Shown piece by piece: positions 1 to 25,427 of a DNA stretch of 25,501 bases (the first letter of the stretch is position 1; each line of letters starts with the position of its first letter). The DNA comes from an uncultured virus (IMG/VR IMGVR_UViG_3300027907_000553) (Duplodnaviria > Heunggongvirae > Uroviricota > Caudoviricetes), in IMG/VR virus record IMGVR_UViG_3300027907_000553; one strand, written 5' to 3'. A program made the position numbers and the translations under genes. The notes under the pieces were generated by a model that was not told the DNA's origin, made no database searches, and worked only from the letters and a program-made list of their open reading frames with translations.

Positions 1-111
1 GGAGACGAGTCGGTTGCGGCTGACGGTCTAGTGGTGGTACGGTTGCCTCGCGCCGATCCTCTGCGCGCGAGGCTGCTACCGCTCCGCGTGTGAAAGACTG
101 AGAGGGAAGCG

Positions 112-324
112 ATGCCGCATGACCGTGCCCAACAGCGCCGCGTCTTCGAAGAAACGATTGCCCGCGTGATGGCGGAGTACGCGCCTGCCGAGGATGTCAT
201 GGTGGAGGCCAAGGCCCTGGACGAGACCGGGCAGTCGATCGTGGTGGCCCGCTATAAGCTGCACACCGATGGGCAGGTCGAGTGTTTCGAAGTGCTCGAT
301 GAGGTCCTATGGCCGAGCCTGTAG
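112..324 (+). CDS. Small hypothetical phage protein
   Basis: 70 aa ORF, purine-rich GAGGGAAG upstream, co-oriented with operon. Confidence 0.65.
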   Translation: MPHDRAQQRRVFEETIARVMAEYAPAEDVMVEAKALDETGQSIVVARYKLHTDGQVECFEVLDEVLWPSL

Positions 325-334
325 CCAGGGCGGG

Positions 335-370
335 CGGTAAAGGTGTCACTACCCTGGAAGGGATTGCAAT
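335..370 (+). CRISPR. Solitary CRISPR-repeat-like unit (type I-D-like: CCCT-GGA-AGGG hairpin + ATTGCAAT handle)
   Basis: TACCCTGGAAGGGATTG (350-366) is identical to 24961-24977; hairpin followed by an 8-nt ATTG(C/A)AA(T/C)-type end. Confidence 0.5.
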
Positions 371-372
371 CT

Positions 373-1413
373 ATGGCCGAGTCTTTGAATGCCCAGATCG
401 CCGATGCCTTCACCGCCCGCTTGCTCCAGGTGGGCCGGGCCGAGACCCGCCAGCGCCAGGAGGCCTGGGCAGCCCTACTCTTGCTGGAGCAGGATCTGTT
501 GCATGCCCTCCGCGAGGCCGATCCGGCACAGTTTAGCTTTCTCGTGGCGCGGCGGCGGGCCGTGCAATTCCTGATGCGCGATGAGGTGGACCCGCTCGTG
601 ACCACGCGGTACGCGCAGATCGCTCGTGACGTGGACGCGTTTCTCATCGCCCTGGCCGAGCAAGAGGCTAGCGTCACTCGGCGTATCGTCAATACCGAGA
701 CCGAGAGCCGGACGATCGACGACATGCCCAGCGAAGCGGCCTTGCGCCGTGCGGTGCGGCAGACGCTCATTCCCAGCCCGGCGACGCCGACCGACCTGAG
801 TACCACGGGGGACGACTGGTGGGGCCGTGCGGCGGCCGGGGTGGTCACCCGCGTGGGCGATTCGCTGATGGTGGGGGTCAGCTTGGAGGAGCCGCTTCCG
901 ACGCTCGTCGCACGGGTGCAGGGGACGGCGGCCAACGGCTTTCAGGACGGGATTATGGCCAAGGCCAAGGAAGACGCGGCGCGGCTCTTGCGCACGCAGA
1001 CGACCAATGCCGTCAGTGAGGCGCGCGTCAAGGTGGCAGATAGCAATGCTGGCACAGTACTGATTGAACATAGTGCGGTGCTTGATAGTAGAACTAGCAC
1101 TATATGCTTAGGGCGTCATGGCTTGCGCTATACCGTACCAGAGCACGAGCCTGTCAATCATAGCGTACCGTATCTGAATGGACCACCATACCACTATGGT
1201 TGTAGAAGTACCATGATACCAGTGGTTCCTGGAGGCGGACGTGTGCCGCAGGAGAGCGTGAGTACATGGCTTAGTCGACGGGACACGGCGTTTCAGGATG
1301 CGGTCTTAGGGCCAACACGGGCACGCATGTGGCGGGCAGGCACGCTTGCTCCACGTGCGCTGATCGACAGTCTCACGGGCAAGCCGTTGACGCTCGAGGA
1401 GTTAGGTGGATGA
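373..1413 (+). CDS. Phage head morphogenesis protein (Mu gpF / SPP1 gp7 family)
   Basis: RTQTTNA...HSAVLDSRTSTICLGRHG...PPYHYGCRST motifs and C-terminal GKPLTLEELGG; start is ATG373 or GTG343. Confidence 0.92.
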   Translation: MAESLNAQIADAFTARLLQVGRAETRQRQEAWAALLLLEQDLLHALREADPAQFSFLVARRRAVQFLMRDEVDPLVTTRYAQIARDVDAFLIALAEQEASVTRRIVNTETESRTIDDMPSEAALRRAVRQTLIPSPATPTDLSTTGDDWWGRAAAGVVTRVGDSLMVGVSLEEPLPTLVARVQGTAANGFQDGIMAKAKEDAARLLRTQTTNAVSEARVKVADSNAGTVLIEHSAVLDSRTSTICLGRHGLRYTVPEHEPVNHSVPYLNGPPYHYGCRSTMIPVVPGGGRVPQESVSTWLSRRDTAFQDAVLGPTRARMWRAGTLAPRALIDSLTGKPLTLEELGG

Positions 1414-1616
1414 CCACGCCTGCGGATTTTCGCCCGCGCTGTCGTCAGTTTCTGGCCGACCTGGAGGCGCTCTGTGCCCGCTATGCGGTCTATATCACCC
1501 CGTCAGGTTACGATATGCTGCAAATCTGGAATGCCTCCGTCGAGGATGCCGGGGGTTTTGATCTCGGAGCCATTGAAGATTGTACCGAGGAGGAACCGGA
1601 CGATGCCTCTGCTTAA
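1410..1616 (+). CDS. Small hypothetical protein
   Basis: ATGA overlap with MuF stop, SD-like GAGGAG/AGGTGG upstream. Confidence 0.7.
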   Translation: MTTPADFRPRCRQFLADLEALCARYAVYITPSGYDMLQIWNASVEDAGGFDLGAIEDCTEEEPDDASA

Positions 1617-1662
1617 GCCCTCGCTCCACGGGCAACCCGCTGACCTTAGAGGAATTAGGAGC

Positions 1663-1956
1663 ATGAATGCGTCCACGCTCCTCGCACGCAATGAGATCAT
1701 GACGACGCGCGTCTTACAGGGCGAGACCTGTCGCCGGGTAGCCCAGGACTATGGACTGTCCGTTACGCGCGTGCAGCAGATTGTGCGGCAGACGCTCCAT
1801 CACGTCTGCTGCACCCAGGCAGTCAGCGAAGTCCCCCTCCTCCCCCTCGACATGCTGCGAGCGTATTATGCCCGCGAGAAAAGTTTGCGGGGGATGGCGA
1901 TGGTGACCGTGCCGCCGAGGCGCCCGCCCATGTTATTAGAGGAGTTAGGCGCGTGA
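1663..1956 (+). CDS. Small HTH DNA-binding protein (Mor/sigma-r4-like)
   Basis: GETCRRVAQDYGLSVTRVQQIV helix-turn-helix pattern; AGGAG immediately upstream (alternative start 1603). Confidence 0.65.
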   Translation: MNASTLLARNEIMTTRVLQGETCRRVAQDYGLSVTRVQQIVRQTLHHVCCTQAVSEVPLLPLDMLRAYYAREKSLRGMAMVTVPPRRPPMLLEELGA

Positions 1957-2150
1957 TCACCGACGCGTACCGCTTCCTCACCCTCCAGGGGGAACCGGCG
2001 CTGCTGTGTCTGCTGTGCAATGGCATCAGTTTTCATCCCCAGGATATTGATTTCGTCTACTGTGCCACCTGCTACGTCTGGCTGGAGCGGGTCCCCCGAA
2101 CCTATGATCCCGCGCAAGGTCCTTACGGGCAGACCGCGAAAGAGCCGTGA
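1953..2150 (+). CDS. Small zinc-ribbon protein
   Basis: CLLC...CATC; GTGA overlap, SD GAGGAG. Confidence 0.7.
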   Translation: MITDAYRFLTLQGEPALLCLLCNGISFHPQDIDFVYCATCYVWLERVPRTYDPAQGPYGQTAKEP

Positions 2151-2347
2151 TGACCACGCGTGATGCCAGGTACACGCATTGGCAGCAACAGCCTGACGAC
2201 GAACTCGACTATGAGCCGGAGCCGGGGTTCTACGCGTCGCCCGACGCACCGCCAGACCCGCCGACGGTCTTGGAGCGGGTTGAGGCGTTTCTCAGCGCGG
2301 AGCATCGCCGCCGCACGGCGCAGGAGGATGCATGCCCGGAACCTTGA
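2147..2347 (+). CDS. Small acidic/Pro-rich hypothetical protein
   Basis: Overlapping stop and start with neighbours. Confidence 0.6.
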   Translation: MMTTRDARYTHWQQQPDDELDYEPEPGFYASPDAPPDPPTVLERVEAFLSAEHRRRTAQEDACPEP

Positions 2348-2550
2348 CGCTCACGGGCGAGGTGTGGCTCCCTGCGAGGCTCATGGCCGGGCGGACGATG
2401 GTGGCCATTGAGGCCCTCCTGCATGCGCATGGTGCGCTCCCGCAGCAGGCGCAGAGTCTGCGTTGGCGCCTCGATGCCGAAACACCGGGGAGTTACCGGC
2501 TGACCTATACCTTTACGCTGCCCGAGGAGAGTCTGGAGGCGCCCACATGA
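2332..2550 (+). CDS. Small hypothetical protein
   Basis: SD AGGAGG upstream, coupled to next gene. Confidence 0.65.
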   Translation: MPGTLTLTGEVWLPARLMAGRTMVAIEALLHAHGALPQQAQSLRWRLDAETPGSYRLTYTFTLPEESLEAPT

Positions 2551-2909
2551 CCTCCTGTTGTGCTTGTGCGCACTGTCAGTGCCTGTGTCATCATGATTTG
2601 ACCATGCAGGACTATCACCAGATGACGCAGGAAGTCTTACTGGGCGAGCGGTTAGCGGGTGTCGCGGCGCGCTGGCAGACCAATACGTCCCAGTTGCGGC
2701 AGGTCATCGCGCAGGTCTGTTATGCGGCGAACCCTGCACGGTATGAGCAGCACCGCGAGGGCGGGGGCAAAGTGTTGGAGAAGTTACGCATCTATGCGAC
2801 GGATTATGGCTTTGAGGCCGCGCCCACGTATGCGGCCTGCCGGCGTGAGCGGGAAGCGCGATATGACAGAATCTCTGATACTCGACGGCCGACTCGTGCG
2901 CCCCATTAG
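2547..2909 (+). CDS. Hypothetical protein with Cys/His-rich N-terminus and possible HTH
   Basis: MTSCCACAHCQCLCHH; LLGERLAGVAARWQTNTSQLRQVI resembles the HTH of 1663-1956; SD GGAGG. Confidence 0.6.
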   Translation: MTSCCACAHCQCLCHHDLTMQDYHQMTQEVLLGERLAGVAARWQTNTSQLRQVIAQVCYAANPARYEQHREGGGKVLEKLRIYATDYGFEAAPTYAACRREREARYDRISDTRRPTRAPH

Positions 2910-3084
2910 TGCGGCGACGGAAGCCTTTGTCCGGGCGCACCTGCCCAGGACGCCGGCGCTGTACGGGCGGATTTGGGTGGTGGAGACCTGTTGGATCGCT
3001 ACCTATCGTCATGCGGTGGGACAGCCTGGCCAGTTTGCCGGGTGGGCCTGTCTTAACCCCCGCCAGGAGTTACCGGATGCTTGA
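2863..3084 (+). CDS. Small hypothetical protein
   Basis: MTESLILDG... in ORF 2659-3084; ends overlapping the next start. Confidence 0.5.
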   Translation: MTESLILDGRLVRPISAATEAFVRAHLPRTPALYGRIWVVETCWIATYRHAVGQPGQFAGWACLNPRQELPDA

Positions 3085-3304
3085 TGCGCACGTCTGGGAA
3101 CGGCTCGAACTGCATGGGGTGACGGAAGAGCACCTGCGCATGTTGGCGTGTGCTCTGGAGCTCCAGAAGAATGGCTCCCTCGCCTGGCATTTTGCGCACG
3201 GCCATCTCTCGCAATGTGACCTGCGCGTGACGTTTGCGGCACGGCGAGCAGAGGTGGCGCGGGTGGAGGAGGCCTTTCTTGACGATACAAGCGTGCAGCG
3301 CTAG
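3077..3304 (+). CDS. Small hypothetical protein
   Basis: SD AGGAG, MLDAHVW... in ORF 2909-3304. Confidence 0.65.
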   Translation: MLDAHVWERLELHGVTEEHLRMLACALELQKNGSLAWHFAHGHLSQCDLRVTFAARRAEVARVEEAFLDDTSVQR

Positions 3305-3319
3305 CCGAAAGGAGGCCGC

Positions 3320-3652
3320 GTGCAGGCGGACTGGTTTTATCGTCTCGCCACGAAGGCGAGTCTCGTCGCCGGATCGGCCTGGATGTTTCTGGGGTCCCTG
3401 TTGGCGTTCGGGCTCTGGCTGGTGGCCGGGCCATTCTTGCACTGGGGCGAGCTATGGCATTTAGTCCCAACAAGTCTTTTGACGTGGACGACGTGGGTCC
3501 TGGTTGTATTAATACAAAATTCACAAATGAAACATGAGCAGGCATTACAACGCAAGCTCGATGAACTTATCCGATCAATAGACAAAGCCGATAATCGCTT
3601 GATTGGCTTGGAGAAGCAGCCACCCTCGGCGTGTCCACCGGAGGCTGGCTAG
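3320..3652 (+). CDS. Low-affinity iron permease (Fet4-like) membrane protein
   Basis: Two TM helices then LIQNSQ..HEQALQRKLDELIRSIDKADNRLIGLE, characteristic of the bacterial Fet4-like family; SD AGGAGG. Confidence 0.85.
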   Translation: MQADWFYRLATKASLVAGSAWMFLGSLLAFGLWLVAGPFLHWGELWHLVPTSLLTWTTWVLVVLIQNSQMKHEQALQRKLDELIRSIDKADNRLIGLEKQPPSACPPEAG

Positions 3653-3784
3653 GCGGGACGAGGCAGGGAACCAGGGCGGGTTCCGGCCCGCCCCAGTCTC
3701 CACACAGGCATTCACGAGTAGCCATGAGTGTAGCAGATCCTCCCCGGTCCTGCACGTCATCTGATCGCTTATACATTTTTCTGC

Positions 3785-3813
3785 TTGTCACACGTCGCCA
3801 TATCTAGTACCCT
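3785..3813 (+). promoter_or_regulatory. Putative sigma70 promoter of the RHH-TcmP-ParB/DUF5131 operon
   Basis: TTGTCA-17 bp-TACCCT; ATG 8 nt downstream with no SD (possibly leaderless). Confidence 0.5.
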
Positions 3814-3821
3814 GCCCGGCT

Positions 3822-3992
3822 ATGAAACGCATCAATGTATATCTCACTGACCAGGAAATTGCCGCCTTGCAGCAACTATCGCAGGACACGGGGCTCAAGT
3901 TTGCGGAGTTGGTCCGGCGCCTGATTGATGAAGGCATTGCGAGACGTGCGTCCGTGCGTGCTCAACCTTTGTCCGATATCCAGAAGGAGTAA
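3822..3992 (+). CDS. Ribbon-helix-helix (CopG-like) regulator, 56 aa, not in ORF track
   Basis: Translated by hand: MKRINVYLTDQEIAALQQLSQDTGLKFAELVRRLIDEGIARR...; beta-strand + two helices RHH pattern. Confidence 0.85.
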   Translation: MKRINVYLTDQEIAALQQLSQDTGLKFAELVRRLIDEGIARRASVRAQPLSDIQKE

Positions 3993-3999
3993 GCAACCC

Positions 4000-4737
4000 A
4001 TGCGATCTCGCACGCGCGACAAGGCTGGGTTTAGCGAGGCCTCGTATAAAAAGCATCACCTCCTCTGGCGTGCTGGGCGCGCGCAAACCTCGGCCTATCA
4101 TGTCACGCATCCTCAAGCTCGGTGTGTCATTATTGATATGCATGCGGGGGCTGGCGAGGGCATTGCGCTTCCCCAGCTTGATTTCTTTCGGGAAGATGTC
4201 TCGTTTCCGACGGCAACCTTGGCAACTCGACTGAGCGATATCGTCCAGGGGGATGTCATTCTATGCGAGCGCAAGGTGAAGGAGCGGCAGCAACTCACGC
4301 AGAAGTTTCCTCACGCAGTTATTCTGGCGGATCATGCGGATATTCCAGAACAACTGGGGCATGGGTATGATTGGGCACTCGTACTGAATGATCCCTGTGG
4401 CTATTCCGAGCACGGCATTGAGACGATGCAGCAGATTGCGTCGCAGGTGGCCACCGATTGGCTCATTGTCTTTAATGAGGGCTCGTTGATGCGCATACTT
4501 GGCATGCGCCCGGTGGTCACGCAGCAAGAAATACCCTTTGTTGCACGGGTACGGGCGGCACGCGCGCTCTATGCCTGGATGGCCGAACCCCAGGCGTGGG
4601 CTGCCCGATTGCGGGCGCGGCACATGGCCAGGACTGTCCTCATTCCTGCCTCCGATGGCTTTCGCTATCGTATCTTTGTCCTGAGCCGTATGCTGAGTGA
4701 TGCGGTCAAACGTGTCCCCTGGGAGATTGTCCTATGA
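4000..4737 (+). CDS. tcmP: Three-Cys-motif partner protein (TcmP-like Rossmann methyltransferase fold)
   Basis: KKHHLL...IIDMHAGAG (SAM motif I-like), ILCE, LNDPCG; directly upstream of a DUF5131 gene; SD AAGGAG at 3984. Confidence 0.7.
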   Translation: MRSRTRDKAGFSEASYKKHHLLWRAGRAQTSAYHVTHPQARCVIIDMHAGAGEGIALPQLDFFREDVSFPTATLATRLSDIVQGDVILCERKVKERQQLTQKFPHAVILADHADIPEQLGHGYDWALVLNDPCGYSEHGIETMQQIASQVATDWLIVFNEGSLMRILGMRPVVTQQEIPFVARVRAARALYAWMAEPQAWAARLRARHMARTVLIPASDGFRYRIFVLSRMLSDAVKRVPWEIVL

Positions 4738-24508: not shown

Positions 24509-24904
24509 ATGGCTGACATACCCTTGCTCCCCGCCACACTTTTGGAAGGCACGACCGGCATCTATACCTTTACGCTGCTTAGTGAAAGTGGCGGGGCAAT
24601 TCCTATCGGTGTGCTCGATACGCTGACGCTCACCTATTACGATGTGGCCAGTGGCCTCATCGTTAATGGGCGCACGAGCCAGAATACACTGAATGCGAAC
24701 GATGTGACCGTTGTTACTGACGTCGGCCCGCCCGCGGTGACGACCGTGACATGGCTGCTTCAGCCTGCCGATACGCAGATGATTGAACCCAACTTGCGGC
24801 ACGAATACCGCGTCATTCAATTTCGGTGGTCGTGGGAGGGAGGCACGCGGTACGGCGCCTATCAGGTGCAGTTTGCGGTGGAAAATATGGCCTTTGTGGT
24901 GTAA
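24509..24904 (+). CDS. BppU-N-like adaptor / structural protein
   Basis: EGTT..YTFTL....G..IP...LTLTYYD pattern; SD AAGGTGA. Confidence 0.6.
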   Translation: MADIPLLPATLLEGTTGIYTFTLLSESGGAIPIGVLDTLTLTYYDVASGLIVNGRTSQNTLNANDVTVVTDVGPPAVTTVTWLLQPADTQMIEPNLRHEYRVIQFRWSWEGGTRYGAYQVQFAVENMAFVV

Positions 24905-24945
24905 GACGTGGCCTGCAGTTTTGGGCTGGTTCCTGTGAGCCAGGT

Positions 24946-25054
24946 GTGCTAGAGTCATGGTACCCTGGAAGGGATTGAAAGGAAGGGATTGAAACGCCTT
25001 TGGGTGGCACATGCCGCCGTTCATAAGCTGCTGTTCCCTGCAAGGGATTTAAAT
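24946..25054 (+). CRISPR. Degenerate two-repeat CRISPR-like mini-array
   Basis: 36-nt units GTGCTAGAGTCATGGTACCCTGGAAGGGATTGAAAG (24946-24981) and GTTCATAAGCTGCTGTTCCCTGCAAGGGATTTAAAT (25019-25054), 37 nt apart, last 22 nt 18/22 identical; intergenic. Confidence 0.55.
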
Positions 25055-25178
25055 CATCATACCGGTAGTCACTGGTCGCCTGAGATGGCTTTCAGGTAAC
25101 ACATACCGCCGCAGAGTTTCGTAGCACCTTGTTGCTGCGTTTCTGTCGGCGGTTTCGTGTTTCTGGAGGTCGCGCACC

Positions 25179-25427
25179 ATGGAAGACGCCCCCTACCGCT
25201 CGGAATCCTGGTCAGGGCTTATCCAATTTCGCTGTCCTGCCTGTGGCTACGATACCCTGCTGCAAGCCCGGATGGATGCCCACATCGCGCACTGTACCCG
25301 CTTGCAAGCGGCCATCGCCGCGGGAGAGCCCCCATCGCCGTTTCCGCCCCCTGAGCCAGAGCCTGACGAGGAGCCCGCCCCAGACGACGAGCCCGTCCCG
25401 GTCCAACCAGCGCCTGCGGGGGCGTAA
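25179..25427 (+). CDS. Small zinc-finger protein with Pro/acidic tail
   Basis: FRCPACGY...MDAHIAHC; SD GGAGG. Confidence 0.75.
   Translation: MEDAPYRSESWSGLIQFRCPACGYDTLLQARMDAHIAHCTRLQAAIAAGEPPSPFPPPEPEPDEEPAPDDEPVPVQPAPAGA

Follow-up and report, generated by a model that had tools for sequence, protein, structure and literature searches.

What is the tail end of a CRISPR repeat (clustered and regularly interspaced short palindromic repeats) doing directly before the start codon of a phage head gene? The question is raised by a stretch of 25,501 nucleotides (nt) from an uncultured tailed phage (IMG/VR record IMGVR_UViG_3300027907_000553; Caudoviricetes), referred to here over its whole length as the window. 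In it, a 48-nt gap between two same-strand genes of the phage head module, a small gene for 70 amino acids (aa) and the gene for the head morphogenesis protein MuF, holds a repeat-like unit. We propose that 343-370 is a phage-borne solitary CRISPR repeat unit (SRU), the 3' part of a type I-D-family repeat, which acts on Cas6d and Cascade of the host as a decoy; we judge this proposal to stand about midway between right and wrong. The core of the unit is identical to the ends of repeats in real arrays, the unit was inserted with duplication of a gene overlap, it recurs in several copies, and in related phages the same places hold repeats of another type. The phage has at least three such units; besides the one before MuF there are two at 24.9-25.1 kb, in a non-coding locus of their own.

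Likeness to type I-D repeats

A preliminary description, made from the letters of the window, had read 335-370 (CGGTAAAGGTGTCACTACCCTGGAAGGGATTGCAAT) as a solitary type I-D-like repeat fused to the MuF start and ending in CCCT-GGA-AGGG-ATTGCAAT. It had also pointed to the similarity of 371-384 (CTATGGCCGAGTCT) to 307-320 (CTATGGCCGAGCCT), 64 nt upstream, where 13 of 14 positions are identical with a mismatch at position 12, and to the triplet GTC at 304-306. All of these letters are as it gave them.

The comparison with real arrays bears out the type. The exact 18-mer CCCTGGAAGGGATTGMAA is present in at least 122 metagenome-contig stretches, and at least 28 of these loci are CRISPR arrays, with 12-95 copies at a period of 72-75 nt. 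The array repeats are 37 nt long and all end in the core motif plus C, for example GTCTCAAAGCAGTAGCTGCCCTGGAAGGGATTGAAAC (in one case ...GGGATTGCAAC); the repeat-end pattern of such arrays can also be written CCCTGGAAGGGATTGAAAC. Among 28 open reading frames (ORFs) scanned beside the arrays, which we designate, like the related phages, by L and G numbers, Cas1d (TIGR04093) scored above cut-off in L244, L310 and L332, Cas4 adjoins the arrays in L244 and L310, and Cas2 that in L310; Cas6-like ORFs beside these arrays scored below cut-off. Read in the orientation in which they end in ATTGAAAC, the repeats at these loci run the same way as the cas genes. The core is not exclusive to type I-D, because some AT-rich arrays with the same core adjoin a Cas4g/Cas1g fusion; an I-D-type Cas3' also lies beside this AT-rich set. 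A scan of genome contigs found a 17-copy array with a 30-nt repeat, GTCCTCATTGCCCCTACGAGGGATTGCAAC, ending CCCTACGAGGGATTGCAAC, in a genome; among the at least 120 stretches listed in that scan one (L092) was a real array, and the others were single chance-like copies.

The likeness is confined to the 3' side of the unit. Its 5' half (334-351) agrees with the best real repeat at 10 of 18 positions, a level reached by 8.9% of random 18-mers from the window, and the relative L012 is without this half entirely. Likeness to a full-length (~37 nt) I-D repeat was thus not found, and the 36-nt unit of the preliminary description has to be shortened: to judge from the alignments, the repeat-like stretch is about 343-370, and firmly only 352-370. 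What places the unit in the type I-D repeat family is its 3' stem-loop followed by an 8-nt handle, ATTGCAAT, which agrees with ATTGAAAC at 6 of 8 positions. Cas6d is described as cutting after the stem-loop and leaving an 8-nt 5' handle (PMC10212523), so that a cut is predicted between 362 and 363, the position already suggested in the preliminary description. The same source gives the protospacer-adjacent motif (PAM) of type I-D as GTN/GTH, and describes CRISPR RNAs (crRNAs) of Synechocystis as trimmed at the 3' end to 39-45 nt, so that a downstream repeat may be unnecessary. A search of the whole window against Rfam, at E values up to 1, returned nothing; this blank is uninformative on CRISPR repeats, because the real arrays of L244 and L310 and the I-E arrays of L381 and L008 were also blank.

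The host need not be cyanobacterial. The public runs containing window DNA, all of them DNA runs, carry the label rhizosphere metagenome, and of 201 sampled genomes of the cyanobacterial phylum one had the exact core, as a single copy with no array. The five genomes behind matched loci yielded only single copies with one mismatch, in one of the five. The flanks of the provirus relative G003 contained no tRNA genes and no NCBIfam housekeeping genes and gave no clue to the host, and a blastn search of GenBank phages with window 1-4000 found no match.

The core was also seen once or twice, 46-62 nt apart, in the GC-rich contigs L269, L291, L307, L317, L329, L331 and L341, immediately ahead of a conserved gene that begins ...TV-x-VRNGMFE-x-K. 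At least one other element has therefore acquired the half-repeat.

Insertion into a gene overlap and the second locus

We aligned the MuF junction of the window with those of 11 IMG/VR relatives (12 sequences; L007, whose contig begins inside MuF, was left out). The uninserted state is preserved in L010: here the 70-aa gene reads ...GAGGTGCTATGGCCGAGCCCGTAA and shares its final 17 nt with the MuF start, and the stretch that is duplicated in the window is present in a single copy. A 64-nt form is found in 4 of the 12 (window, L001-L003) and a 22-nt form in one (L012; TAG-CTC-CCCTGGAAGGGATTGCAAC-CTATGG). In three others (L004-L006) the ATG is preceded by a single type I-E repeat and then CGAACTGGGATTGAGAC, and L008 has a mini-array of three I-E repeats and two spacers directly before the MuF ATG; L004 and L008 retain only GGGATTGA-like remains there. 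The last two, L009 and L011, have no unit at the MuF start, and in them a different small upstream gene is joined to MuF by an ATGA overlap. Homologues of the 70-aa gene lie at the same place in L010, L012, L004, L008, L375 and L011.

An insertion into a gene overlap survives only if both genes keep their ends, hence the duplicated CTATGGCCGAG-Y-CT. The left copy is the C-terminus and stop of the 70-aa gene together with a relic GAGG-N4-ATG of MuF; the unit entered the former overlap of the two genes, each keeping its own copy (a 14-nt duplication). By count such a duplication is unremarkable, since the window has 33 direct 13/14 repeats at distances of up to 200 nt, where mononucleotide shuffles give ~1.1, and the argument is therefore one of homology, from the single copy in L010, and not of statistics. 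The preliminary description had favoured a PAM-flanked, CreA-like self-target in the upstream copy and had named an insertion with a duplicated start as the simpler alternative. The alignment of relatives with and without the insert (L010, L012) settles the matter for the latter, the upstream copy being the end of the 70-aa gene and the relic Shine-Dalgarno (SD) sequence and ATG of MuF. The GTC, taken then for the PAM of a regulatory target, loses that role and keeps another: it marks a junction of GTN-protospacer type, as do the triplets at two further SRU sites. Between the window and L012 the core is identical at 18 of 19 positions, and the MuF DNA at 805 of 1041 (77%).

The relic start (GAGG-N4-ATG, 301-311) opens a 75-aa ORF (309-536) that runs through the repeat unit and overlaps the 5' end of MuF, one base out of frame. 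Ribosomes on this ORF may be drawn off from, or coupled to, the true MuF start at 373.

The unit before MuF is one of several. With up to three mismatches allowed, the 19-nt core occurs three times in the window (352, 24963 and 25036), against 0.00 expected from 100 shuffles. Outside the window, L011 and L009 have I-D-like units between the portal gene and the 70-aa gene, and G005 has one ahead of another gene. In the family sequence of 324,846 nt (partly redundant) 16 units were found, 16 of 16 on the gene-sense strand.

The second locus lies within a 270-nt non-coding stretch (24905-25180). It holds two I-D-like units in the window and in G001, and one in L175, L249 and L344, where the core is exactly that of window 352-370; measured against these three, one unit and 40 nt have in effect been added in the window and G001. 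In G004 the locus holds a single decayed unit of the I-D-like kind, in G003 a 32-nt spacer with two I-E-like repeats, and the scaffold that follows is kept in relatives whichever repeat type precedes it. Regularly spaced repeats, two or more of which make an array, are not seen at 300-400, with its one unit, and 24963-25054 offers two half-units 73 nt apart. The window's 40-nt spacer had no match in ~325 kb of family sequence, and its first 24 nt were found in IMG/VR only in two copies of the same locus. A scan for the sigma-70 consensus found no promoter-like site in 24800-25300; a conserved TGCTAGAGT (TG-N-TAGAGT) upstream of the second-locus units is a possible extended -10 element. By its layout, 24905-25180 resembles a small-RNA gene of its own and is a better candidate for a mini-array or an RNA anti-CRISPR (Racr)-like element than the unit before MuF.

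The repeats that replace the I-D-like units are of a recognised kind: GTGTTCCCCACGCGTGTGGGGATGAACCG is typed, as an exact match, as I-E in Supplementary file 3 of PMC10651486. Such repeats flank spacers in L004, L008, L381 and G003; L004 and L008 have 2-3 repeats with 1-2 spacers and no cas genes. A 34-nt spacer of L004 agrees at 32 of 34 positions with the 5' end of the neighbouring 75-aa gene of the sibling L375, directly after its ATG, and L004's own copy of that gene is far more diverged, with about 9 mismatches (counted by eye). ATG is an accepted type I-E PAM. Spacers S1 and S2 of L008, the second-locus spacer of G003 and six spacers of L381 had no match in the ~325 kb of family sequence. 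In L381, whose MuF is 53% identical, an I-E-type array of at least five repeats and a degenerate sixth lies at 703-1040, just upstream of the portal gene.

Table 1. Features of the window at the MuF start and at the second locus.
Feature	Position	Strand	Remarks
Upstream 70-aa gene	112..324	+	From the ORF list; stop TAG 322-324; last 18 nt correspond to the left copy of the former MuF overlap
Relic MuF translation start and left copy CTATGGCCGAGCCT (307-320)	301..320	+	GAGG 301-304; GTC 304-306 (GTN position); ATG 309-311
5' part of insert, CCAGGGCGGGCGGTAAAG	325..342	+	No significant likeness to CRISPR repeats; not in L012 (CTC there)
Proposed phage SRU, GTGTCACTACCCTGGAAGGGATTGCAAT	343..370	+	Extended form GTCGTCAC-N-TCCCTGGAAGG-R-ATTGAAAC common to SRUs at two other sites in relatives (L011/L009, G005)
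Core	352..370	+	Arms 352-355 / 359-362, loop 356-358, 8-nt handle 363-370 (ATTGCAAT); matches array repeats
Right copy of duplicated overlap	371..384	+	Carries the working MuF start, ATG 373
MuF / SPP1 gp7-type head morphogenesis gene	373..1413	+	Pfam PF04233, E=7e-9; phrog_241, E=1.6e-56; 73 homologues
Second locus, unit 1	24945..24995	+	Core CCCTGGAAGGGATTGAAAG 24963-24981, then partial tandem copy GAAGGGATTGAAAC 24982-24995
Spacer-like 40 nt between units	24996..25035	+	Not in the one-unit relatives L175, L249, L344
Second locus, unit 2	25036..25054	+	CCCTGCAAGGGATTTAAAT; 73 nt after unit 1 (real arrays: 72-75-nt period)
Conserved non-coding scaffold CGGTAGTCACTGGTCGCC ... CAGGTAACACATACCGCCG ... 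CGGCGGTT	25055..25175	+	Fold z = -3.1; terminator-like hairpin 25120-25139

No PHROG, Pfam or NCBIfam family was found for the neighbouring proteins of 70, 75, 134, 82 and 91 aa, and none of them gave a pointer to an anti-CRISPR protein. Scans of the window's ORFs turned up no Cas family, either with Pfam (0 of 20 ORFs) or with NCBIfam (0 of 23). A 110-aa ORF at 3320-3652 matches Pfam PF04120, 'low affinity iron permease' (E=1.9e-21), an unusual family in a phage structural region.

The MuF genes themselves showed a further peculiarity. Of the 7 compared, 4 have an in-frame TGA in place of a conserved Cys codon (motif PYH-x-x-C/TGA-RS), with the frame conserved beyond it; the TGA lies at L008:2187-2189, L010:3832-3834, L011:3832-3834 and in L009 (about 1469), and the homologous Cys codon of the window at 1201-1203. 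Of the 73 clusters of MuF homologues, about 17 have a length of 275-278 aa, as would result from gene callers ending the gene at the TGA. In the genes with the TGA a perfect GC hairpin, CCCGGU-GGU-GCCGGG, begins 14-16 nt downstream of it; those with the Cys codon code for the same peptide, but their hairpin is broken. The TGA is thus a candidate selenocysteine or read-through site in the head protein.

Decoy, captured junction or scar

As a decoy, the unit before MuF would work as follows. It lies on the sense strand of the head-gene operon and would be transcribed with it; host Cas6d would bind the RNA hairpin CCCU-GGA-AGGG and cut after G362, the relevant host repeat being one of the form CCCU-N3-AGGG-AUUGNAAN. 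Host crRNAs would then face competition from the cut RNA for Cas6d and the subunits of Cascade, which it would inhibit in the manner of Racr-type RNA anti-CRISPRs.

A number of observations weigh against this proposal. Late expression, to begin with, is a poor time for an anti-CRISPR. The unit sits inside a structural-gene operon, and in 1-600 the scan for the sigma-70 consensus found no promoter-like or terminator-like site; characterised Racrs carry a strong promoter of their own. The handle departs from ATTGAAAC at 2 of 8 positions. The hairpin CCCT-GGA-AGGG is predicted in short contexts, with z-scores of 0 to +1.8 against shuffles; it is weak and no more stable than shuffled sequence, and the CRISPR case therefore rests on sequence identity, not on folding. 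About half a repeat is present, 19-20 of 37 nt or ~51-54% coverage, and the unit would probably fail the full-match rule of SRUFinder (PMC10651486), which demands at least 90% coverage and a bit score of at least 41.1 and treats lower coverage as at best a partial match. The core is absent from the SRU table of that paper in the form available, and a search of the text of its 9 supplementary files for the contig numbers of six relatives yielded none of them. Of 401 sampled genomes of the phylum to which G011 (a Chloroflexi metagenome-assembled genome) belongs, 0 had the exact core; this phylum, like the cyanobacterial phylum with its one array-less copy, may not be the host's. Finally, the 18/19 identity with L012 is modest evidence of selection, at about p = 0.07 for a background identity of 79%.

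A serious companion to the decoy proposal, if a doubtful one, is that the unit is a captured repeat-spacer junction that now serves as a guide; it concerns origin and is compatible with a decoy role. A host I-D array would have taken spacers at GTN PAMs of this phage family, and recombination between spacer and protospacer would have copied the adjoining repeat end into the phage. The PAM would thereby be replaced and the site made uncuttable, and the phage sequence behind the 8-nt handle could be loaded as a crRNA-like guide against insert-free siblings. We asked which triplet precedes the homologous sequence in copies without an insert. At the MuF site, directly before CT-N-TGG, these were GTC, GTG, GTG, GTG, GCC, GTC and GTA (GTN in 6 of 7); at the L011/L009 site, before TTYGAAGA, they were GTC, GTG, GTG, GTA, ATA and GTC (5 of 6), and at the G005 site GTC, GTC and GCC (2 of 3). 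The I-D-like unit thus ends at the GTN position of uninserted homologues at all three testable sites (3/3), and GTN is the type I-D PAM as given in PMC10212523. GTN makes up 5.5% of window trinucleotides, and the two sites tested once the idea had formed give about 0.003 by our own arithmetic.

The stretch that follows the unit in L011 points the same way: it resembles the 70-aa gene for ~37-46 nt (26-30 of 37 positions), roughly one spacer length, and then falls to background (8-13 of 30). The L004 spacer, with its match to the L375 gene directly after ATG, is an I-E analogue. The window, L004-like and L011-like forms co-occur, as contigs, across a set of four metagenome runs. Leaderless phage mini-arrays are described as possibly gaining spacers by recombination with host arrays and as targeting adjacent genes of close relatives (PMC6858448). 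The provirus relative G003 encodes a RecT-family single-strand-annealing recombinase (L366:3687-4814; TIGR00616, above cut-off), which is relevant to recombination through spacer-length homologies.

Other observations weigh against capture. No host spacer matching the family was found among 1,116 spacers from the fetched arrays, which gave only short, noise-level matches to the window and its relatives (E from 6e-4 per query). None of the siblings examined has an uninserted MuF start similar enough to be a target, L010 differing at about 9 of 37 positions (counted by eye). The left junction of the window insert (325-342) is unexplained, and the G005 case is a replacement of ~30 nt and not a clean insertion. 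The odd handle GCAAT is identical in the window unit and in the second-locus unit of L175, which fits movement from phage site to phage site equally well, and two of the three GTN triplets are simply Val codons. A GC-rich, low-complexity spacer of L273, an AT-rich metagenome array, matches at 18 of 19 positions immediately 5' of the L011 unit (L011:2425-2443, E = 0.003); about three such matches are expected over 1,116 queries, and it is therefore not counted as evidence.

In a general form the idea would be that the SRUs of this family are born by spacer-protospacer recombination, the repeat end landing exactly at the GTN (I-D) or ATG (I-E) PAM and erasing it, and the downstream phage sequence becoming a handle-bearing guide that host Cas proteins use against insert-free siblings. 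We hold this to be rather doubtful. If true, it would describe a protein-free, self-favouring element, with the MuF and 24.9-kb loci re-armed with the repeat type of the current host. The available text of PMC8616872 mentions integration through SRU-repeat recombination and does not mention PAM-junction capture, which does not prove the idea unpublished.

The units might instead be neutral scars, decaying remnants of recombination with CRISPR DNA or with another phage site, functionless and harmless between genes. Close relatives have the unit, lack it or carry something else in its place, only half a repeat survives and its handle is degenerate; the GGGATTGA-like remains in L004 and L008, the decayed second-locus unit of G004 and a hairpin stability at shuffle level would all be expected of a scar. 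Yet hairpin plus handle is precisely what survives in every copy, the units are without exception sense-oriented, and the same two loci have been re-used by two repeat types. The core has moreover stayed 18/19 identical across lineages with 77% MuF DNA identity, and the second locus of the window has gained a unit relative to L175. We consider a neutral scar unlikely.

It is improbable that the likeness to repeats is incidental and that the unit is a translation-initiation or regulatory hairpin, whether as part of a ribosome-binding region or as operator for an RNA-binding protein of the phage. The position is suggestive, as the unit stops 1-2 nt short of a start codon in the window, L012 and G005, where it takes the place of a GAGG or GGAGG SD sequence, for which GGAAGGG could, in our own reading, be a weak and distant substitute. 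Against this stand the exact 18-19-nt identity to real repeat ends, handle included, the copies in L011 and at the second locus, which are not beside start codons, and the unmistakable I-E repeats and spacers that relatives carry at the same two places. Least credible, and disfavoured already, is CreA/CreR-like repression or sensing on phage DNA by a guide-like RNA whose first 11-13 nt would pair with the copy at 304-320, as suggested by a GTC of the I-D PAM type (PMC10212523) followed by the 13/14 match: that match is a split gene overlap, fully explained by L010 as 70-aa gene end and relic MuF start, it stops after 14 nt, its left copy diverges freely in L012 (4 of 18 positions, counted by eye), and instead of a PAM-flanked, repressed promoter matched by the seed there is no promoter-like site at or near 304-325.

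Comparison with known systems

Among known systems, the decoy proposal brings the unit closest to viral SRUs, of which 2,103 have been catalogued, with I-D among the subtypes and some acting as Racrs (PMC10651486: Camara-Wilpert et al. 2023, citing Faure et al. 2019). Like these, it is a lone, repeat-like sequence, intergenic in a phage without cas genes: its place is the gap that separates the stop at 324 from the ATG at 373, with no repeat within 100 bp and no cas gene among the ORFs scanned, and the I-D type and the I-E repeat of its relatives are both in the catalogue. It differs in that only the 3' hairpin and handle are present, in a structural operon just ahead of a start codon, and in that no promoter-like site of its own was found for this copy. 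There are, in addition, several copies, loci at which I-D-like and I-E repeats are swapped among relatives, and no entry in the catalogue as available.

Virus-borne mini-CRISPR arrays are used in conflicts between viruses (Medvedeva et al. 2019, PMC6858448). The L004 spacer, aimed at the adjacent gene of a close sibling and not at its carrier, follows the pattern described there, and the second locus of the window has two units at array spacing. The unit before MuF, in contrast, is one half-repeat with no repeat-flanked spacer, and what follows it is the phage's own working gene start; the contexts here are bacterial I-D and I-E, whereas those of the mini-arrays are Sulfolobales, and no leader was identified here. 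With type I-D repeats and their processing by Cas6d, as described in PMC10212523, the unit shares the stem-loop followed by 8 nt and the GTN/GTH PAM; it differs in being solitary, in lacking the 5' 18 nt, in its handle ATTGCAAT and in belonging to a phage with no cas genes among the scanned ORFs. Phage crRNA-like regulatory RNAs are described as imitating host CRISPR-derived RNAs and competing for Cas proteins (10.1101/2024.10.29.618823). Those, however, are copies of regulatory mini-arrays of the host that partly match cas or toxin promoters, whereas the partial match here is a gene-overlap duplication and no cas or toxin promoter target was identified.

The family bears on the origin of lone phage CRISPR repeats and on their relation to viral mini-arrays. 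The two loci described here, before MuF and at 24.9 kb, are empty, or hold an I-D Cas6-hairpin fragment, or hold I-E repeats, and so form a compact natural series, in which the I-E repeats come with spacers aimed at a sibling phage and the I-D-like fragments sit where uninserted relatives have an I-D PAM. The series makes two ideas testable: that SRUs are born by PAM-deleting spacer-protospacer recombination, and that a bare hairpin plus handle is enough to engage Cas6 and Cascade. Should neither hold, the unit would only add another entry to a catalogue of known things. Published work already covers viral SRUs, Racrs and mini-arrays (PMC10651486, PMC6858448 and PMC8616872); new here are the reduction to a half-repeat, its place at a start codon in a structural operon, two loci that switch between I-D-like and I-E repeats, and units that lie at PAM positions.

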